Positions 11,466-62,212 of a stretch of 64,000 bases of DNA are shown here, in pieces. The notes under the pieces were generated by a model. It saw nothing but the letters and a program-made list of their open reading frames with translations, was not told where the DNA came from and did not search any database. This DNA comes from a virus: positions 11,238 to 75,237 of IMG/VR virus record IMGVR_UViG_3300009428_000006. One strand, 5' to 3'. Numbering within the stretch: the stretch's first letter is position 1; every line of letters begins with the position of its first letter. A program made the position numbers and the translations under genes.

Positions 11466-12599
11466 ATGTCTGAACAAGTAAATAAAGCTAAAGCCGTTGT
11501 TGGTGGTGAAGCTGGTGTAAACGGTCTATCTTCAGTTCACGTAGATAAGCCACTTTCTGATTTTTCTGTAAAAGTTGTACAAGATGATACACACTTTAAA
11601 GCCCGTCAGATCCTAAGTAACTTTAACTCTAAGCATCGTCAAGATATGTACTACTTCTATGAACCTGCATATTTCATGATCAATCAGGTTAAAGAACGTG
11701 CAGAGGGTGCAGAAGCAGCTAAGGCTAAATATGGCGTAAGTCGTAAACCATTCACTACTAAAGTATATGCACTTAAGCAGCCAGTTACAGATGAGACTGT
11801 AGCAAATGCTGATAAGCCTATTGATCGTATCTATGAAGATGCAGCTCAATTTGTTACTCGTCAGTTCCTTCTTAACAAAGAGAAGAAAATGGCTGAAGCT
11901 ATCCTAGCTGATGGTGTATGGGGTACAGATTGGACAGGCCAAGATGCAGCTCTTACTGATCCATTAGCTGTTGTAGAAGCAGGTGCTTTCCAGAAGTTCA
12001 CAGCAGCAACATCTAAGCCTTTAGATGTATTAGATGAAGCTATGCAGACTATCCAGCTTAAATCAGGCTTACGTCCTAACACAATGGTACTAACACGTAC
12101 TGTATGGACAGCCCTTAAGCGTAATGCTTCAATCAAGACCACTAAGCTATATACTAACGGTAACTCTGGTTCTGATGATGCTATCATGGATACTATCGCC
12201 AGCCACCTAGGTATCATGGCCTCTGACATCTATGTATTAGATGTGGTTGAGCCAGCTTCAGCAGCTACAATTGATGGCACTACTTACCAAATCACTACTG
12301 ATGCAGAAGGCTATGCAACTAATGCTGCTGGTGACACAACTCTTGCTAATCAATTTATTGGTGGTAATGGTATCTTACTTATGCATGTAGATAAGACTTC
12401 AAATGGTCAATACTCAGCAACTGCTGCAGTATGTGCTCAGTGGACTGGTTTATACCCTGATGGTGGTGAACTAGGTAATACTGTGTTTAAACGCTACCAC
12501 ATGGAAGAATTTAGCTCTGAGTTCATCGAAGGCCGTACAGCCTTTAGCTACCATATCGTAGCACCTGCATTAGGTTTATTCTTAAAAGATGTAATCTAA
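11466..12599 (+). CDS. major capsid protein
   Basis: 377 aa, strongly biased codon usage, strong RBS, position, followed by a terminator; VDKPLSDFSV and GLRPNTMVL motifs. Confidence 0.88.
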   Translation: MSEQVNKAKAVVGGEAGVNGLSSVHVDKPLSDFSVKVVQDDTHFKARQILSNFNSKHRQDMYYFYEPAYFMINQVKERAEGAEAAKAKYGVSRKPFTTKVYALKQPVTDETVANADKPIDRIYEDAAQFVTRQFLLNKEKKMAEAILADGVWGTDWTGQDAALTDPLAVVEAGAFQKFTAATSKPLDVLDEAMQTIQLKSGLRPNTMVLTRTVWTALKRNASIKTTKLYTNGNSGSDDAIMDTIASHLGIMASDIYVLDVVEPASAATIDGTTYQITTDAEGYATNAAGDTTLANQFIGGNGILLMHVDKTSNGQYSATAAVCAQWTGLYPDGGELGNTVFKRYHMEEFSSEFIEGRTAFSYHIVAPALGLFLKDVI

Positions 12600-49822: not shown

Positions 49823-49851
49823 AATATAATTTAATTGTGATTTTCTGTCAA
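49823..49851 (-). promoter_or_regulatory. sigma70 promoter heading the leftward operon
   Basis: TTGACA-17 bp-TATATT on the minus strand. Confidence 0.75.
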
Positions 49852-49888: not shown

Positions 49889-49957
49889 CACCCTAGGGTA
49901 CATAAAAATTTGCCAGAGCGATCTTAGTAAAACTCAAAATCTCAATTCATTTTCAGT
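49889..49957 (+). repeat. conserved leader element, copy 1
   Basis: CACCCTAG..AAAAAT..CCAGAGC.ATCT.TAGTAAAACT-N7-TCAA-N4-TTTTCA, shared with 59572-59636. Confidence 0.8.
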
Positions 49958-49984
49958 TTCCAGAATCAGTAAAATTCTGACTTA

Positions 49985-50402
49985 AATGAGAATCATTCTC
50001 ATTACGCTGGAATGCTAATGCGATTAGCTATCATTTAGATTTAACTTTGTAAACGAGAATAGTTTAGCTTTGTAAATGAGAATTAATCTTGTTTACTGGC
50101 GATCGCCCACCCTTCATTCCTCCTGAAAATGATTAAATCATTTGGACGTTAAAGGGAAGCGCTGCCCGTGTGGTTTGGGAGACTTTCAGCTTTAAGCTGA
50201 TATAACCAAGTATATAGATCTTGTCGAATAGTGCAAGCGGTTTATACAATTTATTTGTAATTAATTTAAATCAAATATAACAAGCTGTAAGCGGCTGTAA
50301 CGGGCCTTAGTTAGATAGATAGGTCATTGCATTAGATTATTATTAAAAGGCTCAGGATCGGTTACAGGACGCTTGATTAGGTTATTGATAATCATTTACA
50401 TT
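49985..50402. promoter_or_regulatory. Fur-box-like array 1
   Basis: Perfect palindrome AATGAGAATCATTCTCATT at 49985-50003; further matches at 50017, 50052 (half), 50075 and 50384. Confidence 0.72.
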
Positions 50403-50896
50403 AACAGAATATCGCCCACTCTCTATTGATTCCAAGAGCTTTAAACTTAAGTTTGCGTTATCTGCCGAGCCGCCTTCTAACCTGTTATCTGTTACGAACT
50501 ATAAGCCCTTACACTTTAAATTGCAAGGGCTTTTGTTGATTAATTTAATATTGACCTGTAGGTAAATAATCACTATTAACCAACCTTGTTAAAACTGCCT
50601 CTGCATTAGGTAAAACTTTAATACCTTCTACACCAATCGATTCTAAAAGCTTTACATCATTATAACCCGCTACAGGTGATGCATACTTAAAACTACTTTT
50701 CATAATAAACATAATCTTTACCCTTTTAAATAATATTCTCTGTTTGTGTACCGCTATTATATAAACAAACGTTTTACCCTGTCAACAAAGATCACCAATA
50801 TTATTAAAAATAATTCTTTAATAAAATTGTTTTCAATAGTTTAAAAATAGTGTACCTTTATACGTATTGAAACAACTTAAACAAAGGCTTTATATT

Positions 50897-51121
50897 ATGA
50901 AACAGATTAATCCAACTTATGATCAGGTGTCTTATATTATAGACAGGTTTAACCTCGCACAATGCTACAACGGTGCAAACAGTGAACATTACCAAAACTA
51001 TGATCACTGTTACTTTTACACCTGTTCACGTTCGCCACAGGGCCACATGGTTACGCATGTATGTGATAATTTAGCAAATGTTATCAAACAGGATAAATTA
51101 ATTTCACATTTAATTAAATAA
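50897..51121 (+). CDS. early hypothetical protein
   Basis: AAGG RBS before ATG 50897. Confidence 0.6.
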   Translation: MKQINPTYDQVSYIIDRFNLAQCYNGANSEHYQNYDHCYFYTCSRSPQGHMVTHVCDNLANVIKQDKLISHLIK

Positions 51122-51415
51122 AAGCTTGCGTTTAAATTATAACACTGTATATTAGTATTCATCGGCTCACAGGGAGCCACTATTTAAAGGGGTTTTATTA
51201 TGAAAAAGATAGACAACGTTTGGCATATATGCCGTGATGGTTGGGTTTTTGAAGTTGCAACACAATCAGAAATAGTTGAACATGTGTTTAACGGGTTAAC
51301 TTTACAAGAGTTTGAAAAGAGTTTTAAATAAACACTTGCAATTATAATCTACTTGGATTAAAATTTAATAACTGGCTGGCAACGGGTTAGCCACTTTTAA
51401 GAATAAGGTTTTATT

Positions 51416-51676
51416 ATGCAAACTTTCGAAGATGTTAACGGCGTTGTGGTTGGTGGTTTTTCTTGTAAAGTCTGCTTGATTGATCCTAACGGGAGTATAG
51501 TTAACTATAAAATAGTACCTGACAGTGCAGACTTTAAGTCTATAGCCGATGATATGAAATTTAAAATTTTATCAGAAAAGCTCGGTAATGGCCAGCTACT
51601 GAGGGATCGCCCTGACTTAATCAGATCTTTACACGGGACAGGTAACTGGGAATTAAAGATTATATCTTTAAAATAA
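51416..51676 (+). CDS. early hypothetical protein
   Basis: Own promoter, leader hairpin and RBS. Confidence 0.65.
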   Translation: MQTFEDVNGVVVGGFSCKVCLIDPNGSIVNYKIVPDSADFKSIADDMKFKILSEKLGNGQLLRDRPDLIRSLHGTGNWELKIISLK

Positions 51677-51691
51677 ACACCAAAAAAGCGG

Positions 51692-51721
51692 TTGACAGCT
51701 CCCAACGTTAACCGCTACAAT
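51692..51721 (+). promoter_or_regulatory. early sigma70 promoter, duplicated at 54177-54206
   Basis: TTGACAGCTCCCAACGTTA(A/G)CCGCTACA(A/C)T occurs twice. Confidence 0.75.
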
Positions 51722-51763
51722 TAACACTCAATCAAAAATTATATTATTAAAAGGTATTACATT

Positions 51764-52030
51764 ATGAATACATTAAAATTCTCTACCCGCCAACAGATGC
51801 GAACTTTTGTTAAACGTGTTAACCTATGCACAGGTAAAAAGCTTTTCAAGTCTACAAGCGGGAAAGATGGTTGCGGATCTTGGTTAGCTCACAAGGTTAT
51901 TAAAACAAACACATTGCAAGCTCCTTCAAAACCTGCTAAAGTTCAATCACTAGCTTTTAATGTTCACGGCTCGGCTATAGTAGTGACTCACAAGCGTTCT
52001 ATAGCGGCTAGAGTGGCAGTAATCGCTTAA
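51764..52030 (+). CDS. early basic hypothetical protein
   Basis: Promoter and RBS. Confidence 0.65.
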   Translation: MNTLKFSTRQQMRTFVKRVNLCTGKKLFKSTSGKDGCGSWLAHKVIKTNTLQAPSKPAKVQSLAFNVHGSAIVVTHKRSIAARVAVIA

Positions 52031-52279
52031 CTAATACAATGACAGCCTTGTGACGTTTAAACAGCTCACAGGGCTACACAATAACGATTTAAAAGGATGG
52101 ATTGAAATGGGTAGAGTATCACCAATGAAACGAACAAAAAACACAGCTAAAACGGTACGAATTGATCGCAAACGTACACGCAAGGGCCAAGATCTAGCAA
52201 TGCAAGCAGATAGGGCGAATAAACGGGCAGATCAATTTGTAGAGTTTGAAAAAGAAAACGATTAATTCAAAATAAAGTG

Positions 52280-52308
52280 TTGACAGCGTAAACTGTATAA
52301 AGTAGAAT
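52280..52308 (+). promoter_or_regulatory. early sigma70 promoter
   Basis: TTGACA-17 bp-TAGAAT with AT-rich UP element. Confidence 0.8.
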
Positions 52309-52366
52309 TACCTTATTGAAACAAAACGCCACTAACGGCAAATTACATTTTAAAAGAGATATTATT

Positions 52367-52765
52367 ATGACTACATTATCAGAAATTCGCAAAACTATCA
52401 TCATTAACAATGATCACCTAATTAACGCCAAGGCTGCAATCAAATCTATGACTAATGATCCTCTGTCACACTTCGAAGATGTTATTACAAGTGATTATGA
52501 GGCAATGCTAAATGGACATTACGAGGATCATCTAGACGATATAGAATTTCTATGTGGTGAATTTCTATGTGGTGAATATGCATCGGACTTAATGCAAAAG
52601 CATGATCCTGTTATGTTTCGTTGCGGTTTAAATGATTTTGCTGATAGTTTTGATATTATGAATTTAGACGAATATATTGATCTAGAATCTGAGGTCGAAG
52701 AGTTAGAAAAAGAAATAGCTGGACTTACGGAAGAGTTAGAAGAGTTAGAGAATAACTTAAATTAA
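52367..52765 (+). CDS. acidic early protein (possible DNA mimic)
   Basis: Very D/E-rich; DPVMFRCGLNDFADS; contains a 15-bp tandem duplication. Confidence 0.65.
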   Translation: MTTLSEIRKTIIINNDHLINAKAAIKSMTNDPLSHFEDVITSDYEAMLNGHYEDHLDDIEFLCGEFLCGEYASDLMQKHDPVMFRCGLNDFADSFDIMNLDEYIDLESEVEELEKEIAGLTEELEELENNLN

Positions 52766-52878
52766 AGCTTGCTTTGTTGGTGTGTTTAGTTATATACTGA
52801 GCACATCTTAACAAGGCCGCTAAAGCGGTTTTTATTATTAACAGGCAATTATGCCACCATTTAAAAAGAGTGAATATT

Positions 52879-53313
52879 ATGAAAACTTTAAAATCTGTAT
52901 CTTATGAAAACGTTGAAAACTTAAACACTGATTTTAACTACCATCAAGCGGTGTTATCTTTAACTGATAGCGTTATCTATGCAATTAATGAAGCTCTAGA
53001 TTGTGATCAAATCAGTTTTGATAGGGATGAAATAGAAGATCTGGCAAATGATAGCCTATTACATGAAATAGTGGACGGTAGTCAATACGCAATTTATTAT
53101 CATTATCATTTAGATATACTTAAACACTCTACCAATTCAGATTATGCTATTGATCATGGCATCCTTTGCGGTGACAGTTTAGCCGATATTATTAAAAATG
53201 ATGGTTTAAACGGTTTACATCAAGCATTAGCTTTTTATGCAATGTATGCAGACGTACAAGAACAATTAAGCGAACACTTAGATCAGACAGATTTTGATTG
53301 TGATGAAGAATAA
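52879..53313 (+). CDS. Ocr-like DNA-mimic anti-restriction protein
   Basis: Highly acidic; LHEIVDGSQYAIYY resembles T7 Ocr IHMAADNAVPHYY; acidic tail; early location. Confidence 0.6.
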   Translation: MKTLKSVSYENVENLNTDFNYHQAVLSLTDSVIYAINEALDCDQISFDRDEIEDLANDSLLHEIVDGSQYAIYYHYHLDILKHSTNSDYAIDHGILCGDSLADIIKNDGLNGLHQALAFYAMYADVQEQLSEHLDQTDFDCDEE

Positions 53314-53377
53314 ATAACCCCCCTTTTGTGGCGGTGAACTATCCGCCTTTTATTTTCACTAGCACAGGCCGCAATCT

Positions 53378-53563
53378 ATGAGTAAACAAACTGCATTAAA
53401 AGTATGTAAGGATCATCTGAATTATTTGGTACACTTGCAACAGCGACAGAATGATCCAAGCATCACCAAAACATTGTCAAGCGTTATTAATGATCAAATG
53501 GATGATGATCCAGAGTGGCAACAAATGCAATATTTAAGGAGTTTAAGAGATGGCAACAAATGA
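53378..53563 (+). CDS. early hypothetical protein
   Basis: ORF. Confidence 0.5.
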   Translation: MSKQTALKVCKDHLNYLVHLQQRQNDPSITKTLSSVINDQMDDDPEWQQMQYLRSLRDGNK

Positions 53564-53831
53564 TATTAAACTAACAGGCAAAGAATACACTATTACATTT
53601 ACTGAAAATATGTATGATTACATTGTAGAACATAGCTTACTTGAAACTATCAAGACAGAACTTTATACAAACTTTGATGGTATTGATGCAGTTTTGGAAT
53701 ATCACGGATCATTGATCATCGATGTAAATAATATAAACTTAAACCCTGCTACCATTTACGCTAAAGTTGTAAAGGTGATAGGTAATCACAAGCTGTCACA
53801 GCGCACCAAAACGGCTTTAATTATTCATTAG
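53550..53831 (+). CDS. early hypothetical protein
   Basis: AAGGAG RBS. Confidence 0.6.
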   Translation: MATNDIKLTGKEYTITFTENMYDYIVEHSLLETIKTELYTNFDGIDAVLEYHGSLIIDVNNINLNPATIYAKVVKVIGNHKLSQRTKTALIIH

Positions 53832-54237
53832 TGCAATTGCATAGATAACGATTTAAATTAATCACAGTCTATTACAGGACGTTTAAAAAGGTATTAAAAT
53901 TAATTGCAATTATTTATAATAAAAGGTTGCAATACAAATCAAGCTGCATTACTATTTAATCACTGGCTAGCAAGGTGTTAGCCACGTAAACAAATTGAGG
54001 TTAAATTATGAAAGCTTACATGGTTATTTACATGGATAATTTTAAAGCCGTGCAATGTGTAATAGGTGCCGAAAATGAAGAGAATGTTAAAATTAAGGCT
54101 GATAAAGTAGGCATTCAAAATATAGTTAGTATTCAATACTTAAACGCTTATTTATTAAATTAAACACTAAAAGAGGTTGACAGCTCCCAACGTTAGCCGC
54201 TACACTACAAACAAGTTAAACAATGAGGTTTAAAATT

Positions 54238-54426
54238 ATGATTAACTTAACAGAAGCACGCCAAGCGTTATCAAATGAGTTTGAAGAGTTAACACGACTT
54301 GAACAAAAGTTAGAGGATAACACATGCGAACACGGGCAAGGCTACCTAGTTGGTAAGATTGTAGAATGTGAAAAGATGATCCGTGAATTGGATGAAGAGA
54401 TCAAGTTGTTAGAAAGTGAAGAATAA
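54238..54426 (+). CDS. small acidic coiled-coil early protein
   Basis: Promoter at 54177 and GAGG RBS. Confidence 0.6.
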   Translation: MINLTEARQALSNEFEELTRLEQKLEDNTCEHGQGYLVGKIVECEKMIRELDEEIKLLESEE

Positions 54427-54497
54427 TTAAAATTAATAGTTGTTTTCTTGATGTAGTTATGTAACAATGATTACATCTTAACAAAGCAATTTACAAA

Positions 54498-54574
54498 GCG
54501 CTGTTAGCTCAACTGGATAGAGCAAGATGTTTCTACCGTCTAGGTTATAGGTTCGAATCCTATACAGTGTACCA
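54498..54574 (+). tRNA. tRNA-Arg(UCU)
   Basis: Full cloverleaf: GCGCTGT/ACAGTGT acceptor, GCTC/GAGC D-stem with A20, AGATG/CGTCT stem with loop TT-TCT-AC, TTCGAAT T-loop, encoded CCA. Confidence 0.93.
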
Positions 54575-54597
54575 ACTTTCAATAAACAGGTGATATT

Positions 54598-54870
54598 ATG
54601 AAAACAGAAATTATAGTACAGACTTATGAGGCGGCACCCGATATGAGAATAACAGGGTCTAACATGTGGACAGGTAAAAAGGCACATTTTCATGTAAATG
54701 GTAAAAACCAAGGTTATAAAATTTATATGACTAATACAGGTAAATTTATTAGTTTTTATATCAAGCTGAAGGGTATTAACAACTACCTCATTAATGATGC
54801 CATGAACTTTGACAGCTCAGTGTACAGACTGGACAATTTAGTTGGTTGGTACTTTGAAAAGAGTCTTTAA
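54598..54870 (+). CDS. early hypothetical protein
   Basis: AGGTG RBS. Confidence 0.6.
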   Translation: MKTEIIVQTYEAAPDMRITGSNMWTGKKAHFHVNGKNQGYKIYMTNTGKFISFYIKLKGINNYLINDAMNFDSSVYRLDNLVGWYFEKSL

Positions 54871-55224
54871 ATAAAAGCTTTACTTTTAAATTAATAGCCT
54901 GTAATATGCGGGTTATTCCTTAAGAGATAATATTCAAATAATAGGCCGAGATAATGACTAAACAATTTTACTCAAAACGTACTGAACAGTACATGAAAAC
55001 TCAATCAACTATGCACAAGGTTGAAAATGTAATCAAAACTTGCATGTTCGCATTTATCCCTGTAAGCTTGGTTATATTAATAGTTTTAGACTGGTTACGA
55101 GTATTCAGAATTAGCTGGTTAATTGGATAATATGTACCTGTAGTAGTCCTAGGATTGATTTAAATATTTTTACTAGGGCGATTGTATAGGTAATAGATTA
55201 TAAACGCTTAGAGAGGCTTAAAAA

Positions 55225-55635
55225 ATGCTACAATTAACACATGATACACTGAAACAAACATCTACTGAGGTAGAGAAAGGGACAGATATTAGTCAGATCA
55301 TAAATGGTATGTTTTCTCTAATGGATACGTCAAAAGGGATCGGACTTGCTGCGAACCAAGTTGGATTAACTATCCGAGTAATAGTTGTAAACGTGCAAGG
55401 CTTTAGAACTGAAATTATAAACCCCGTGATCACTCGTAAGGGTGGCAAGCTAAAGATCTCAAAGGAGGGCTGTCTATCATTCCCTTCAAGACAGGCCACA
55501 TTAAAAAGGGATGAGATGATCACGGTTGAAGGTTTTGATCGTAATTGGCAACCAATCAAAAAGAATTGCAAAGGATTACTAAGCTATTGTGTACAACATG
55601 AAATAGATCATTTAAACGGTATTACAATTTTATAA
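55225..55635 (+). CDS. def: peptide deformylase
   Basis: GIGLAANQVG, EGCLS and QHEIDHLNG motifs. Confidence 0.95.
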   Translation: MLQLTHDTLKQTSTEVEKGTDISQIINGMFSLMDTSKGIGLAANQVGLTIRVIVVNVQGFRTEIINPVITRKGGKLKISKEGCLSFPSRQATLKRDEMITVEGFDRNWQPIKKNCKGLLSYCVQHEIDHLNGITIL

Positions 55636-55755
55636 ACTAAATGCAAATTAATTGATATAGAGTGTTGACACCTTAGTCAGTGATCTATAATATAGCGGTT
55701 ACTGGCTAAGCAATAACGTATTAGCAGATTAAATAAAAATAGGGGAAATATAATT

Positions 55756-56133
55756 ATGAATGAATTAGCTTTTAACTTAGTAATTGGACTAGTAACAGTC
55801 ATACTGTCAGGGTATGTATTGATCGGACTTATGCGACATTGGACCAGATCAGATAAGTTTATACTGATTAACAGGGCTGGTGTAAGCTGCTGGACTAGTT
55901 ATTTATTAGGTGGTTTTCTTTTAGCACTAGTGACGTTTTTTATTATCGCTGTTTCTAGTCTTTTACGTTCAGATGGTGTACTATTCGAAGCGCTTATAGG
56001 TGTTGTAATCATCTTTGCAGCAATATACACACCCCGCTTTGTACTTGATATCAGCAGAGGCTTACGCTATAATGCAAAAACTGGTGAACTTGCCAGAATC
56101 AAAGAGCTTGAAGATAAATTAAAAGAATACTAA
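55756..56133 (+). CDS. membrane protein (three TM segments)
   Basis: Three hydrophobic segments; own promoter at 55665. Confidence 0.7.
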   Translation: MNELAFNLVIGLVTVILSGYVLIGLMRHWTRSDKFILINRAGVSCWTSYLLGGFLLALVTFFIIAVSSLLRSDGVLFEALIGVVIIFAAIYTPRFVLDISRGLRYNAKTGELARIKELEDKLKEY

Positions 56134-56197
56134 ACAAAAATGATCTGTGAGTGTTAACGAGCAGACCATTATAACCAACTAATCACAAGGTGATAAT

Positions 56198-56395
56198 ATG
56201 AAAGAATCAACAATCTTAAAATTATGCAAACGTGCAACTAGACGTAATCCAAAATCAGTTAATATGATTTCACATTGTGGTGTCTCATTTAGAATACTAA
56301 AAACCACCCACGGCACTTACAAGGTCTATTTTGATGGTCAACAATGGAAGATTAACCAAGTAAAAGATCATTTAGTTAAATATTTATTAAGTTAA
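56198..56395 (+). CDS. early hypothetical protein
   Basis: AAGGTG RBS. Confidence 0.6.
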   Translation: MKESTILKLCKRATRRNPKSVNMISHCGVSFRILKTTHGTYKVYFDGQQWKINQVKDHLVKYLLS

Positions 56396-56461
56396 ACTAA
56401 TAACACAATGACAGATCATAAAAGGTCTGTCATATATCTAACCTAACAAGAGGGCAAATAA

Positions 56462-56719
56462 ATGTACATAATAAGTGCAGGAAAATACAAAGATGATTAC
56501 ACAGATCTATACATAAAATACACAGATCACCATAGTATGACATCCTTAATAGAATCATCTTGGTTCAAAGATTATTATCAACACATAATAGAAGAAGGTG
56601 TGACAGGGTATAGACTGGTAGAAATAAGCCAAGGCTTTAAATTAGTAGTTCAGTACCTAGAAGGCAATTCATACTGTGAGACAGATATATGTCTTTACAG
56701 ATTAAACAGACTAGACTAA
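56462..56719 (+). CDS. early hypothetical protein
   Basis: GAGG RBS. Confidence 0.55.
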   Translation: MYIISAGKYKDDYTDLYIKYTDHHSMTSLIESSWFKDYYQHIIEEGVTGYRLVEISQGFKLVVQYLEGNSYCETDICLYRLNRLD

Positions 56720-56759
56720 TAAAAGAGTAATAGACAACAACAGTCTATTACTTATTTAA

Positions 56760-57140
56760 TATAGCAACATAGTTACACAGACAATACAACCCAGATCAAC
56801 TAACACAATCAAACATACAAGCCCCATAGCCAGCCTGTAACCGATTTAAACCTATTAACCTAAGTAACCCTATTGGGTAGATAATTAAACAGCTTACAGG
56901 CTTATTGAAGAGCTTATATGATACACTAGATAATCATAGACTAATATACATATCTAATTAATCAATCAATACTTACTTATCAATCTAAAATATAGATAAT
57001 ACAATACATACAACAGATCATACAGATCATTATACGCATACTGTACAGATCACCATACACAACTTACATACATAGATCATCTGCATACTATACTACCTGC
57101 CATAGATCGCACTATCCAGATCAATACATAGACTAGATCA
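56760..57140. repeat. A/C-skewed non-coding tract with clustered AGATC repeats (candidate origin)
   Basis: GATC at 56795, 57016, 57025, 57048, 57075, 57105, 57119 and 57136, all preceded by A. Confidence 0.6.
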
Positions 57141-57285
57141 AGGGAGTTGGGAGGGGGAGAATCCCCTTCCAAACCTCAAGTAAGGTTGACATTATCAACT
57201 ATATAATATGGCATACAAACAAGCATACAAATGATAGCTATTACCATTACTATTAAGATTACCATTACTATAGATCTATTAAGTG

Positions 57286-57314
57286 TTGACGTATGCAATA
57301 TCTGTATGTATACT
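57286..57314 (+). promoter_or_regulatory. sigma70 promoter
   Basis: TTGACG-17 bp-TATACT. Confidence 0.7.
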
Positions 57315-57373
57315 TCGTATGGTATGTATATTAAATATTAAGATTACTATGGTATAGTATTATAGTTCTATGC

Positions 57374-57946
57374 ATGGAAATCTTAGAAATCTCGGATCAG
57401 CAACTAAGGGGGGAAGATATGATACTTGTTGACGGCAAAAGGAGTCCCAAATCAGGGTTAAAATATAACAGTAAGCAGGGGCTGCAATCGAGCTACACCG
57501 CAATGGAATACGGGGAATGGGACTCAATAAGAGTTGGAATAGCAGACCAGATGATCAAGAAGTATAAGGCTAGTTATCCTAAGACACAGTACAAAAGCTT
57601 GCAGGGTTTAAGATTTCTACTTATTACACTTATTAAGGTTAGAAAGCGGATAGCATTAACAAAGAATTTGCATTGCACACCTAAGACTTTAAAGAAGATG
57701 GCTGATCAACTATCGGGAATTTATCCAATACTTATAGAGGCTAGATCTGGAGTAAGTAAGCAAGTTAATAACGTTGTTGTTTTCTCATCATCCCCCACTA
57801 TACAGTTAAGGATTATGGCAGAACAATTTATAAGAGAGCATTGGCAGGATCATTTGTGGAGACATAAAGGCGAAGAGTTAAATCTCAAAACTTATGATCC
57901 TGATCAGTATGAATATGACAAATTAAAAAGAGAGGGCAAAATATGA
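57374..57946 (+). CDS. basic hypothetical protein (possible DNA-binding)
   Basis: 190-aa Lys-rich ORF; start uncertain (ATG 57419 has a better RBS). Confidence 0.65.
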   Translation: MEILEISDQQLRGEDMILVDGKRSPKSGLKYNSKQGLQSSYTAMEYGEWDSIRVGIADQMIKKYKASYPKTQYKSLQGLRFLLITLIKVRKRIALTKNLHCTPKTLKKMADQLSGIYPILIEARSGVSKQVNNVVVFSSSPTIQLRIMAEQFIREHWQDHLWRHKGEELNLKTYDPDQYEYDKLKREGKI

Positions 57947-58254
57947 GCTATGGAGAATTTTTAAAACCAATATCTTACCGAGTTATGTTAGGTATAAAGA
58001 AATCAATGGAAGAGATTCCAGAGTTGGTCAGGAATGGAGATGAAGAGGGCATCAAGTCACGTATTGATTGGGTTGCTTATTTTATTGAGGAGTTTCTAGA
58101 TCCTAGTATAGCCTTTATGGATTATATTGATAGAGATGATTGGCCTCAAACACCTGAAGAAGTGCTTGCAGAAAATGAATATTATGACAGCCTAGATGCA
58201 CAAGGTATCAGGGCGGAAATAGAAGCAGAGATGTTAAACACAGATTATAACTAA
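57943..58254 (+). CDS. acidic hypothetical protein
   Basis: Coupled ORF with RBS. Confidence 0.65.
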   Translation: MSYGEFLKPISYRVMLGIKKSMEEIPELVRNGDEEGIKSRIDWVAYFIEEFLDPSIAFMDYIDRDDWPQTPEEVLAENEYYDSLDAQGIRAEIEAEMLNTDYN

Positions 58255-58496
58255 GGAGTTTACAACATGATTTTTATAAAACCAAGAAGAAGCCAACAAA
58301 ACTACAACAGGAATACAGGTAAGATGCAAAGACTAGCGATATTTGCCCTGTCATATGGTGGTAGCTATAAAACTGCAAGTTATGTATCAGGACTAGGACT
58401 AAGACGAGTTAAAGTGATAGCTAAACAATTAAGGAGATTCTAATTAATTTAAAATAATCTATTGACAAGGAAGTCAGAGATCTATACAATGTAACA

Positions 58497-58835
58497 CATA
58501 GATTAATGACAAAGGATAAATATTAGATCACTGGATAGGGAACTTGGTAACCTAATTCACAAAGGCATTATAACAGACCGCTGCAATGGGCAAGTCTCAG
58601 GACCACAAGGTTTCAGGGAGATCCGATCCTTTCCAGCTTATAAGATAGGCAGCCGCCCCGTGTTGAGTTAGTCCGTTCTAGTAAGCAGATACGTAACATG
58701 GAAGTTTTAAACCGTTCTCGGTTGGTGTGCTTAAAGTGTAACAGCCCTCAACAATGTATGCAAGGGCTTATTAGATATTACTTGCTTAATAGTTCACATA
58801 GTATCATCATAGCTGGAAAGCTCAATACAGCCAGC
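58497..58835 (+). ncRNA. candidate structured ncRNA
   Basis: Promoter TTGACA-17-TACAAT (58462-58490) drives a GC-richer segment with no RBS-led ORF and several long-range stems. Confidence 0.45.
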
Positions 58836-58863
58836 CATATTAACGTTACTTGGATCTTACGCT

Positions 58864-59088
58864 TCATGGTGTCACCTTTATTGTTTTATATTCCCACGTT
58901 ACTATGTTGGATTTAATAATATCAAGATCTAACAAGTATGTTAGACCTCTGTTATCAATTATGCGCCCACAAATGCCGTCACATGTAGTCACAGGATACC
59001 AACGATCTTTTGTAAAATCTTTAGCATATGAAACATCCTTTGTAAGTCTGACATATAATTGATCTGTCTCTACCTTTCTACGCTTCAT
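58864..59088 (-). CDS. hypothetical protein
   Basis: ORF with GGGTG RBS. Confidence 0.55.
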   Translation of the reverse strand: MKRRKVETDQLYVRLTKDVSYAKDFTKDRWYPVTTCDGICGRIIDNRGLTYLLDLDIIKSNIVTWEYKTIKVTP

Positions 59089-59223
59089 AGTTCACCCTTC
59101 CCATTTTTAACTAATAGTAATATAGCTAATATTGCTACAATGTATATTAATACGCCTGCTAGTGTTCCACTCATTGTCTAATACCTCTTAATCGTTGTTG
59201 TGCTGGGCTGTAAGGCCATGTAA

Positions 59224-59481
59224 TTACTTAAATGATACATAACCTTTAAATAGTACTTGACCCGTTCTAGCTACAGCCTCAATCTCTTTAAACATCTTAT
59301 TATTAAATGAATTTCCTGTATATCTGTAATAGCTCACAGAAAGCTTTGTGACTGGCTTATCTTGATAATAGATATAACCCTTGCCTAATGGCTTTACAGT
59401 CCAACGTGGCTTGGCTGGTGGCTCATAATGACGATGTTTAAAGCCTAGTTTGTTGAACGTCTTCTTGATTGATTCTAGCAT
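59224..59481 (-). CDS. hypothetical protein
   Basis: AAGGA RBS; minus-strand promoter TTGTAA-17-TACCAT at about 59513-59541. Confidence 0.6.
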   Translation of the reverse strand: MLESIKKTFNKLGFKHRHYEPPAKPRWTVKPLGKGYIYYQDKPVTKLSVSYYRYTGNSFNNKMFKEIEAVARTGQVLFKGYVSFK

Positions 59482-59571
59482 AGTTGATCCTTATTAGTTA
59501 ATTGATTATTGAATGGTAGCATTGGCTGATGGATTTTACAAGCTGTTTTACAACTGGCCTTAGATCGTGAC

Positions 59572-59636
59572 CACCCTAGATCGAAAAATCCCCAGAGCAT
59601 CTATAGTAAAACTGGGAAAGTCAAACGGTTTTCAAT
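59572..59636 (+). repeat. conserved leader element, copy 2
   Basis: Homologous to 49889-49957. Confidence 0.8.
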
Positions 59637-59663
59637 TCTCAACTTGCTTGCTTTTATTTTCTA

Positions 59664-60195
59664 AATGATAATCAATATCAAATGCAAATAGTTATCATTA
59701 ACTCTAGATGAGAATTGATATCAAATGCGATCTCTTCTCAACAACTACAAATGAGAATAGCCATCAATTGCAAATGAGAATAAGTCTTATCTGCTTACTT
59801 GAGAATAATTATCAATACCAATTAGCAAATGGTAGATCTAACGAGTGATAAGCCTAGCACGTTTTCAATTAATCACATAGAACGGTTTGTTATATACATA
59901 TGCTTAATTATTACTACAATTCACAAGCTAAACATGCTAAGCATCTAGATGATAATGATTATCAATAACTAATTTAACTAAGCAAACAGTGTGCCAACTA
60001 TTGTCCGATCTACCAGATGAAGAGATCTTTTTGTTTTAATACTAACACTAAGGTAAAACCGATCGCCTCTTAGAATCACTTACAGGACGTTTTAGCCTAT
60101 GTTGACTTTGAATCAATAGTACGCTGGGCAATAATAAAATGTTGACAGGCTGATCAATATATGCATGAGGCTGGTGGATGATAACTATTATCAAT
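59664..60195. promoter_or_regulatory. Fur-box-like array 2
   Basis: 19-mers at 59664, 59681, 59707, 59724, 59750, 59773, 59798, 59948 and 60177 match AATGANAATNATTNTCATT at about 10-14 of 16 positions. Confidence 0.72.
59981..59997 (-). promoter_or_regulatory. sigma54 (-24/-12) consensus site
   Basis: TTGGCACACTGTTTGCT on the minus strand (GG-N10-GC). Confidence 0.55.
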
Positions 60196-60311
60196 TAGAA
60201 ATTAATTTAAAATAAAGTGCATTTAATAGTAGATCTTCCTATCTAAGTATGAGATGATCACTCTATCGGAACGGTACAACGTTTCACAACTTACATTTTA
60301 AGGCTTACATT

Positions 60312-60512
60312 ATGAAAACTTATCAATCAGCTAAACTGGACACTTACAAAAATAAAGATGGATCTTATACTACTTACATTTTTAACGGTAAAGATTTAAA
60401 AGCATGTAAAGAGGTTACATACAAGTTAAAACGTGATTCTGTCGCAATGGCTAAAATCTTAGTAGATAACAATGATTATAACTTTTTAAAGTTAACTAAC
60501 TATTACAACTAA
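60312..60512 (+). CDS. early hypothetical protein
   Basis: Promoter and AAGG RBS. Confidence 0.6.
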   Translation: MKTYQSAKLDTYKNKDGSYTTYIFNGKDLKACKEVTYKLKRDSVAMAKILVDNNDYNFLKLTNYYN

Positions 60513-60611
60513 TTTAACTTTATTTACCGAAAAGTATTGATCATCTTAGCTAGATATGAGATGATCAATACATCGAAGCAATACAGCTTAACCATTTAGG
60601 AATTAACGACA

Positions 60612-60790
60612 ATGAAAACATTATCTGCTAAAACAATCGCATGTGTTACTAAGTTCATCAACGAATCTAACACAGTAGGCATTCAAGCTATCAAAGCAAG
60701 CGCTACTAGGTCACTGCAAGAACGTAACCCAAACGGTACACAGTATGCGATTGCAGCGTTAGAACTTAAATCTATTGATAGTATTTTATA
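60612..60790 (+). CDS. early hypothetical protein (about 59 aa)
   Basis: AGGA RBS, MKTLSAKTIAC...; followed by a terminator at about 60811-60837. Confidence 0.5.
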
Positions 60791-60869
60791 ATAAACTAAC
60801 CATTACCAACAAAGCCCACTCTGACTAGTGGGCTTTTACTTTTAATTAAAAGATTTTTAAGGATGTAGT

Positions 60870-61073
60870 ATGGATAACAAAATGCGACACTATCTAGGGT
60901 TATACTTGTTTTTACAGCACGAAAAGCATCTAAGTATGGTACTAGATTTACAATTCAGGGATAGCTTAAGGCGTAATTTCAATCTAACTGAAGAGAAATT
61001 AACAGAAAGTCTAAAAGAGGTTGAAGGTAGCCTTAATCTTGATATATCTTGTTTATATCTAGAATTTGATTGA
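60870..61073 (+). CDS. hypothetical protein
   Basis: AAGGA RBS. Confidence 0.55.
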   Translation: MDNKMRHYLGLYLFLQHEKHLSMVLDLQFRDSLRRNFNLTEEKLTESLKEVEGSLNLDISCLYLEFD

Positions 61074-61220
61074 TATTAAATGTAATGGCCACTGTAAAAG
61101 GTGGCTTTTAATGTTCAAACTATTTTAACTTTATTCACTCAAAAGAGTTGATCATCTTATCTGAATATGAGATGATCACTTTATTGAAGCAATACTGCTT
61201 AACCATTTAGGAATTACACA

Positions 61221-61490
61221 ATGCTAAAGCTTACTAAAGCTAACTACACATTTGCAGCAAAGCACGGATTACAATTAGACGTAAATATTGAAGATGGTAA
61301 TGTATTAATCTTTGTTCAAGGTGAAGAGGAGAACTTAATAGAATACATGTTCAATGCAGACCGCGATCAACTCACTTTTAAGTTTCAAGTGTACGGCAAC
61401 AAGATCGAAGATTTACCAGCGCACATTGATGACACTAAACAATTCAACCAAGTTATTAAGTTCATTGGCTCACAACTAGAAACACTTTGA
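61221..61490 (+). CDS. early hypothetical protein
   Basis: Promoter and AGGA RBS. Confidence 0.65.
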   Translation: MLKLTKANYTFAAKHGLQLDVNIEDGNVLIFVQGEEENLIEYMFNADRDQLTFKFQVYGNKIEDLPAHIDDTKQFNQVIKFIGSQLETL

Positions 61491-61690
61491 GGAGGGATCT
61501 TATGTATCTTCTTTATGACGAGTTAAGAGAATCAAATCAGGATGTTAAAATATATTGTCGCACACTAGGTGGTGATTACTATACTGCAACTTGGTTTGCT
61601 CTTAATCCTTTATGGAGCAATGAATATTTTTGGTTTATTGAAAAACTAGGGAGCGAAGAGCTAAGACAGAGCACAATGTTAGAGTTTTAG
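61487..61690 (+). CDS. hypothetical protein (true start probably ATG 61502)
   Basis: GAGGAGG RBS; followed by terminator AGCCCTC-ccatt-GAGGGCT-TTTT. Confidence 0.55.
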   Translation: MRRDLMYLLYDELRESNQDVKIYCRTLGGDYYTATWFALNPLWSNEYFWFIEKLGSEELRQSTMLEF

Positions 61691-61750
61691 ACACTATCAA
61701 AAGTAACCAGCCCTCCCATTGAGGGCTTTTTCATGCCTGTAATAAACATC

Positions 61751-62195
61751 TTTGCTATGCAACTATGCTATGCGTTCCTCTATGTGATTCTAAGACGTCT
61801 TAAAACCTACCCGCTGCCATTGTATTACTTATATGGCGATCGCTGCTTAGAGTGCTTGTGAGTGGCTTATATTGGACAATTTGATGGAATCATACGGGGG
61901 GTACGGGTCTATATTTTCACTTAACCCTCTTGTAAAACTAGCACTACTTTTGACTATGTTAATACTCCCACCACCCTTTCTAATATTTTGTAGTAATTTT
62001 GCCTATGTTAACAGCTTATGATCCTTTCGAATATATAGGAAGATGGGGTCTTTTAAAATCAGCTATAAAATTTTTGCTATGAAAATGGGCTATGGAGCTT
62101 GGCTATAAGAGGTGGGCTATGTAAGAAGATGGTGTCTTTGAAAAATGGGGGTATAAAGATTTTCTGAAAAAATGGGGGTCTAGAAAAAGACCCTT
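61751..62195. repeat. non-coding repeat tract (CTATG/GCTAT, AAAATGGG, GAAGATGG.GTCTTT)
   Basis: Multiple short direct repeats plus GGGGGGTACGGG at 61896. Confidence 0.6.
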
Positions 62196-62212
62196 TAATA
62201 ATTTTGTAAATT

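Follow-up and report, generated by a model that had tools for sequence, protein, structure and literature searches.

What is the function of a non-coding element that a virus carries twice, each time at the same distance ahead of an array of palindromes resembling Fur boxes? The question is raised by a 64,000-nucleotide stretch of viral DNA (hereafter the window), which comprises bases 11238-75237 of the linear 75,237-bp IMG/VR contig IMGVR_UViG_3300009428_000006; completeness was judged to be 78%, and the end of the window is the end of the contig. Two copies of a leader sequence, starting at 49889 (copy A) and 59572 (copy B), each precede a Fur-box-like array in the early region. Tentatively, and with slightly less than an even chance of being right, we read leader plus array as a paralogous, modular cis-regulatory cassette placed upstream of leftward promoters, a role predicted from sequence comparison.

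The window belongs to a siphophage. Its plus strand encodes terminase, portal, capsid, tape measure and a 2,380-aa tail protein, followed by a minus-strand gene block of 14 kb (35.5-49.8 kb) and then by numerous small ORFs and a tRNA-Arg; the block at 50-59 kb is made of small early-type genes. The best matches of the capsid protein are those of Shewanella phage KASIA (vB_SspS_KASIA; 73% identity) and Colwellia phage 9A, with all other phages below 30%, and the gene blocks of the window phage and KASIA are collinear. By these comparisons the phage is a member of the KASIA/9A group and, given its best capsid matches, not of the Demerecviridae. Large minus-strand ORFs and one large plus-strand ORF occupy the start of the contig (11 kb); by collinearity with KASIA they correspond to primase, helicase, part of the DNA polymerase and RNA polymerase; the contig break thus apparently falls inside the replication block.

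A leader duplicated in register with a Fur-box-like array

The 10-mer TAGTAAAACT occurs in the window only at 49925 and 59604, as direct repeats 9,679 bp apart (two occurrences against 0.45 expected). Counted from this anchor, TCAA follows at +17 (49942 and 59621), TTTTCA at +25 (49950 and 59629) and the first AATGA(G/T)AATCA box at +60 (49985 and 59664) in both copies. Direct reading of both copies confirmed every coordinate given in the initial annotation, and the exact register that it described was borne out, with zero indels between TAGTAAAACT and the first box. The sequence CACCCTAG starts at 49889 in copy A and at 59572 in copy B, and the 5' part of the leader (CACCCTAG..AAAAAT..CCAGAGC) is accordingly shifted by 4 nt between the copies (9,683 vs 9,679 bp), a difference that implies small indels within the leader.

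In an unanchored local alignment the leader alone is a marginal match, scoring 33 against 31-32 at unrelated places in the window. When the copies are anchored on the first box, the 100 bases upstream of it match at 50 positions against a background of 27.1±4.4, and among 127,800 positions on both strands only copy A itself and copy B attain this value. The 50-nt spacer between anchor and box matches at 23 of its 50 positions by itself (background 13.9±3.1, p ~0.004). Since the anchored identity lies far above background, we regard the two copies as homologous rather than as a chance match. Protein paralogy was not found among the early ORFs, so the duplication appears to be confined to the non-coding cassette.

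Sequence reading and alignment delimit leader A (CACCCTAGGGTACAT..CCAGAGCGATCT-TAGTAAAACT) at 49889-49934 on the plus strand, with a 10-bp palindrome, ACCCTAGGGT, in its 5' half. The 50-nt spacer A (49935-49984, plus strand) runs up to the first box and contains two small dyads and the IHF-like motif TCAA-N4-TTTTCA, which is present in both copies and fits the IHF core WATCAANNNNTTR with an upstream A/T tract only partly. Array A (49985-50093, without strand), recognised in box scans and through blastn matches in T5-like repeat regions, begins with a perfect 19-bp palindrome (49985-50003) that matches the Fur consensus at 14 of 19 positions; weaker boxes start at 50017 and 50075, and an additional Fur-like box lies to the right of the array at 50384-50402. 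The second copy repeats this layout, with leader B (CACCCTAGATCG..CCAGAGC-ATCTA-TAGTAAAACT; 59572-59613, plus strand), again placed by sequence reading and alignment, the 50-nt spacer B (59614-59663, plus strand), placed by sequence reading and the anchored comparison, and array B (59664-59816, without strand), where the box scans located boxes starting at 59664, 59681, 59750, 59773 and 59798. Distal boxes follow at 59948-59966 and 60177-60195, and array B has blastn matches in Vibrio T5-like phages. Sites counted as Fur-like matched the Fur consensus at 14-16/19 positions or the palindromic box pattern at 16/19 or more; they cluster in early intergenic regions, at 49985-50402, 53092, 57230 and 59664-60195, and the box at 59951 matches the consensus at 16 of 19 positions.

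Both leaders start a short distance upstream of a leftward promoter. On the side of copy A, a sigma-70-type promoter (TTGACA-17-TATATT; 49823-49851, minus strand), which scored 11/12 in the promoter scan and is kept in a close relative (see below), serves the 14-kb minus-strand gene block, and the leader starts 38 nt upstream of its -35 hexamer. On the side of copy B, a candidate promoter read from the sequence (TTGTAA-17-TACCAT; 59513-59541, minus strand), at 8/12 below the scan threshold, precedes an 85-aa gene (59224-59481), and the leader starts 31 nt upstream of the -35 hexamer; the stretch holding this candidate (up to 59548) is 97.6% identical in the same relative. Each copy had been described as lying between a leftward promoter and rightward early genes. 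Leftward promoters do adjoin both copies, but the description fails to the right of copy A, where a leftward ORF at 50545-50712, preceded by a perfect promoter of the same direction (50785-50756), comes first and rightward genes begin only at ~50.9 kb.

The relative is L086, a 91-kb TARA contig with many early proteins that are 97-100% identical to those of the window. Compared with L086, region A is conserved in patches on a scale of 50-100 bp, a pattern that points to constraint: the 5' half of leader A is unalignable, the segment CCAGA..TAGTAAAACT and the entire spacer A are ~95% identical and free of indels, while identity on both flanks falls to ~75% or alignment fails. Spacers A and B of the window likewise align with each other without an indel. 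A box at 50068-50097 is identical. The distance from leader to first box is therefore fixed in three copies, namely A, B and the L086 counterpart of A. Missing from L086 is a 2.2-kb block (59549-61748, plus strand, delimited by blastn of L086 against the window) that comprises leader B, array B, five small plus-strand ORFs and a terminator; ~30 nt of junction sequence (L086 14227-14258) stand in its place, and a Fur-like array is found further right, in the junction region. A lack of the leader in relatives, which would have counted against the initial annotation, is thus not what is seen for copy A, whose 3' half and +60 spacing are kept in L086; copy B is missing there.

Beyond L086, phage 9A has Fur-like boxes in the corresponding early part of its genome. 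Its gap syntenic to region A contains a CCTAGG-containing motif ~95 nt before two Fur-like boxes, as well as an AATCTC..TTCAT element that resembles the spacer, with a spacing 7 nt longer. Neither Fur-like arrays nor the leader were found in KASIA. Two exact-pattern scans of IMG/VR for the leader gave no match in other contigs, a local alignment search across 80 related loci returned background scores only, and syntenic arrays sought in two further loci (L002 and L017) proved to be coding sequence in one and a single box in the other. IMG/VR also held no relatives for the two proteins flanking copies A and B, nor for one early protein. The leader is restricted to this lineage, in which it would have a regulatory role.

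Several observations on the boxes of these genomes stand apart from the duplication. The Fur-box-like palindromes in the early-gene part of 9A (L096/L097) are at positions 452, 4530, 4557, 93122, 94744 and 95679 of the record, one of them inside a 2.1-kb gene-free junction gap (93437-95572) rich in CTATA-type and G-run repeats. In contigs from other marine samples, different sequence abuts the first box of array A (~49984), and likewise begins just past the box at 60177-60195 (60174-60216), which suggests that the boxes sit at recombination joints between mosaic modules; these alternative flanks matched none of the sequences compared.

Predicted terminal repeat and comparison with T5

Could the two leaders mark the ends of the phage DNA? 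The initial annotation had proposed that they are both ends of a ~9.7-kb terminal repeat and hence sites of terminase recognition and cutting, and its premise of a long terminal repeat agrees with what is known of this group: the KASIA genome has a non-permuted direct terminal repeat of 6,912 bp, mapped by PhageTerm and coverage (PMC8541194). The small early-type genes that fill 50-59 kb and the direct orientation of the two copies also fit the proposal. So would a 16-nt exact match to leader A (ACACCCTAGGGTACAT) within the KASIA repeat. This match, however, lies in the coding sequence of p013 (MYPRV), ~600 bp from the boundary; because it is inside a gene and corresponds to no protein-level relation, we discarded it as a probable coincidence.

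The KASIA map allows the termini of the window phage to be predicted. In the orientation of the window, the left boundary in KASIA (6912) is accompanied by a ~450-bp G-poor tract (G 0.04), a G-run (..GCGGGGAAT), promoters and p013, the first gene inside the mapped repeat. The same order of elements is found in the window at 56720-57166 (plus strand), where a G-poor tract (56720-57139; G 0.10) leads to the G-run GGGAGGGGGAGAAT (57140-57166), and a p013 homologue follows at 57374-57946 (plus strand; tblastn E 5e-10 to 6e-10, aligned almost from end to end). The right boundary in KASIA lies ~375 bp past a terminator that is recognisable both in 9A and in the window (61709-61735). In the window this terminator opens a convergent junction (61709-62212, without strand) with GCTATG/GGCTATG repeats and two copies of AAATGGGGGT, which is homologous to the record-end junction of KASIA and to the gap at 93.4-95.6 kb of 9A; past the terminator, G-runs and a AAATTTTTGAAAATT-like motif are common to KASIA and the window, where the DNA similarity is weak and bridged by 9A. 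With the p013 homologue, the G-poor tract with its G-run and the junction terminator all shared, a terminal repeat can be predicted by homology from 57.16 to 62.0-62.2 kb, roughly 5 kb, a placement in which our confidence falls a little short of even. Cassette B would then be inside the repeat and cassette A ~7 kb outside it, and the predicted boundaries give concrete positions that can be checked.

Neither leader coincides with these boundaries, and L086 has copy A only, without the partner that a repeat end would need. Contig depth in an independent sample (run X2) is 10-15 over 46.9-56.5 kb against ~20 on both sides, below the flanks rather than doubled, as a repeat at 49.9-59.6 kb would require; these values are contig means from strain mixtures and thus weak evidence, and they do not confirm the KASIA-based boundaries either. 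A search for a G-run or other motif linking region A or B to the predicted right boundary gave nothing above chance, and the two boundaries of KASIA itself have only a short G/C-run in common. Judged by these homology-based boundaries, the leaders are not the ends of the terminal repeat, and we consider the idea that they are terminase cut sites highly improbable. Nor does the likeness to lambda cosB, an IHF-phased protein-DNA assembly, extend that far: in both cases a bend-site-like motif stands at a fixed distance from repeated protein-binding boxes, but terminase binding lacks support here, the site is off the predicted terminus and the IHF match is partial.

Two details of the boundary regions can be added. 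In L086 a near-perfect Fur box core, GATAATCATTATC (11600-11622), ~65 nt past the predicted left repeat boundary, corresponds to the weaker site at 57230-57248 of the window. On the two sides of the mapped boundary of KASIA (L084; 6630-6712 and 6950-7400) lie four (A/G)TTTCTGCACC direct repeats and a tract of strong strand skew, which loosely recall the GTGCAAATCCGACA repeats and G-rich tract that end the T5 terminal repeat.

T5 provides a second point of comparison, as the initial annotation had suggested. With region A as query, blastn matched gene-free DNA at 9.3-9.9 kb in many T5-like phages, and reading two of these revealed arrays of AAATGAGAATCATT(C/A)TCATT-type boxes beside DnaA boxes and GTGCAAATCCGACA repeats; in a Vibrio T5-like phage the arrays have a matching layout, and the repeat regions matched come from T5-like phages of both enterobacteria and Vibrio. 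This DNA corresponds to T5 Repeat Region 3, located in the left terminal repeat and described as a candidate injection-stop signal (Davison, bioRxiv 10.1101/866236). The cited paper leaves Fur unmentioned (10.1101/866236), and we found no paper in the literature searched that states the presence of Fur-box-like arrays in the injection-stop DNA of T5-like phages. The window resembles Repeat Region 3 in that an extended piece of early, terminal-repeat DNA is free of genes and contains an array of DRC/pal-type (Fur-box-like) palindromes. Unlike T5, which has DRD-type repeats and paired DnaA boxes in an IRD'-spacer-IRC' arrangement, the window has neither beside its arrays: the DnaA box TTATNCACA occurs four times in the window, never within 49-62 kb, and none is near A or B. 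The window also differs in having two direct copies, each with its own leader, the first of them outside the predicted repeat. The T5 lead is right in part: it applies to the arrays, which resemble those of the injection-stop region, and not to the leaders, which do not fit the analogy. As far as analogy goes, T5 is a useful guide to the arrays, and the theme of Fur-box arrays would extend to a second phage family.

This resemblance raises the possibility that the Fur-bound array B, or the junction array of L086, acts as a roadblock or anchor during DNA entry, a role already put forward for the T5 injection-stop region, with the leader as a mere adjacent phasing or bending element and copy A serving another purpose. 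The detectable similarity of the arrays to Repeat Region 3 favours it, as do the location of array B within the predicted repeat (although ~2.3 kb short of its predicted right end), the position of the L086 array at the junction near the predicted inner boundary, as in T5, and the traits that KASIA-like phages share with T5 (a long repeat and an A1 homologue). Yet DnaA boxes and DRD-type repeats are missing beside the arrays, array A falls outside the predicted repeat, and KASIA, with its mapped termini, has no arrays at all and differs from the window in this as in the lack of a leader. Two-step injection is not known for the KASIA/9A group, and the authors of the KASIA study doubt a T5-like DNA transfer (PMC8541194). 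An injection pause seems to us unlikely.

A candidate Fur-recruiting cassette

The cassette reading that we favour would bring these features together as follows. The leader copies would be paralogues of one non-coding element, each forming with its array, at a fixed 60 nt, a cis-acting cassette in early intergenic DNA; the cassettes begin upstream of leftward promoters of host type, at a distance of 31-38 nt from the -35 hexamer. The boxes would be occupied by host Fur or by a protein of identical specificity, and the A/T-rich leader and spacer, with their IHF-like TCAA-N4-TTTTCA, would set helical phase or a bend from the promoter-proximal part to the first box. Early transcription could then be tuned by how far the array is occupied, or a large part of the cell's Fur could be held there. 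The cassette would be modular, copy B having been gained or lost with the 2.2-kb accessory-gene block. Conserved spacing without sequence identity had been taken as a sign of a phased nucleoprotein complex; a phased protein-DNA complex would be a reasonable, if putative, reading.

Host Fur is the simplest ligand to suppose. Among 30 early ORFs searched against Pfam, a peptide deformylase was the sole match at the curated threshold, and no Fur-like or other recognisable DNA-binding domain was found, which argues for a host factor. Like clustered Fur operators, the sites are 19-bp palindromes with 13-16/19 matches to GATAATGATAATCATTATC, several per region and some overlapping. They differ from such operators in belonging to a virulent-type phage, in lying mostly off -35 and -10 elements and in having a conserved leader at a fixed distance, and binding is putative.

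Several findings weigh against the cassette reading. Classical Fur operators overlap the promoter they repress, whereas the first boxes here are clear of the -35 and -10 elements of any good promoter and at least 130 nt from the leftward -35 hexamers; the promoter scan likewise found no good rightward promoter over them. The first box of array A has diverged in L086, and L086 has lost the palindrome in the 5' part of the leader, which copy B keeps only in degenerate form. The IHF-like site matches its consensus only in part. With the leader in no other IMG/VR contig, its conservation is documented in very few genomes, and both Fur binding and an effect on expression are predicted from sequence.

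An RNA-level function was weighed as well, in which leader and spacer would specify a small RNA or a structured 5' transcript end. Copy A does fold into three small hairpins (z -1.9 on the plus strand, -2.8 on the minus strand), and downstream of it lie a conserved non-coding block (50118-50305) and, at ~50505-50540, a plus-strand terminator hairpin. Copy B, however, has no stable fold (z above 0), no structure is common to both copies, and in L086 two G-to-A changes destabilise the stems, with no compensating change. Rfam identified only the tRNA-Arg in the window, no convincing promoter was seen upstream of or in the leader, and the DNA of the window was not found in RNA runs. We therefore consider a leader RNA very unlikely. 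A candidate promoter of the phage RNA polymerase, a 23-mer at 1750-1772, bears no likeness to the leader either. With no Rfam match, shared fold, likeness to this promoter or promoter for the leader, a protein-binding region acting at the DNA level remains.

The conserved block just mentioned is an observation in its own right. At 50118-50305 on the plus strand it is nearly identical (~99%) in L086, where its neighbours are 60-80% identical, and it holds a rightward promoter-like site at 50221-50250. Block and terminator together are a candidate for a small RNA (~280 nt) or for a dense operator region.

The arrays might also act as a sponge, binding up host Fur as the phage DNA replicates and so promoting iron uptake for iron-dependent enzymes of the phage; the leader, though conserved beside them, would in that case do nothing itself. 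It is established from the Fur titration assay that Fur boxes present in many copies relieve repression of the Fur regulon, and the phage has many boxes per genome, most of them not over promoters. The peptide deformylase of the window phage and the ribonucleotide reductase genes of KASIA are in line with such a need for iron. A sponge does not explain the fixed +60 spacing or the strong conservation of leader and spacer, when the first box itself has diverged in L086. For these reasons Fur titration appears to us an improbable main function, although both it and an injection pause may overlap with the cassette reading.

The deformylase gene (55225-55635, plus strand; PF01327, E 5.5e-40) lies among the early genes and is 100% identical in L086. 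The native metal of peptide deformylase is iron, and the presence of a gene for an iron enzyme beside Fur-like sites is of interest in itself.

At its broadest, the resemblance to T5 could mean that a portable, host-protein-recruiting module of leader and Fur boxes is common to two unrelated groups of phages with long terminal repeats, the T5-like and the KASIA/9A-like. With its phase set by a bend in the leader, Fur would gather on phage DNA as this enters or replicates; the outcome would be either a pause in entry or a sequestration of Fur that releases iron uptake. We hold this generalisation to be unlikely. If it is true, the first step of infection by these phages would in general take input from iron sensing, which has so far gone unrecognised. 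The occurrence of similar arrays in a different family of terminal-repeat phages, with cold marine hosts, argues for a general role in early infection, and the locus offers a second test system for the unexplained T5-like arrays, in which the leader is conserved, its spacing is fixed and one copy is naturally missing from a variant.

Other repeated motifs in the early intergenic DNA

Two further motif families recur near the cassettes. Palindromes of the GCGATCGC type are present at 50098-50107, 60060-60067 and 61838-61846 (GGCGATCGCC, CCGATCGCC and GGCGATCGC, respectively). The counterpart in L086 of the palindrome at 50098 is AACGATCACG, and in place of that at 61838 L086 has a Fur-like box core, GATAATCGT. 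The second motif, ..TTACAGGACG(C/T)TT, occurs three times in early intergenic DNA, always on the plus strand (50351-50374, 53861-53884 and 60069-60092). It stands 426 and 465 nt past the two TAGTAAAACT anchors, and versions of it are found in L086 and in Colwellia phage 9A (GCTTAGAATGGCTTACAGGG).

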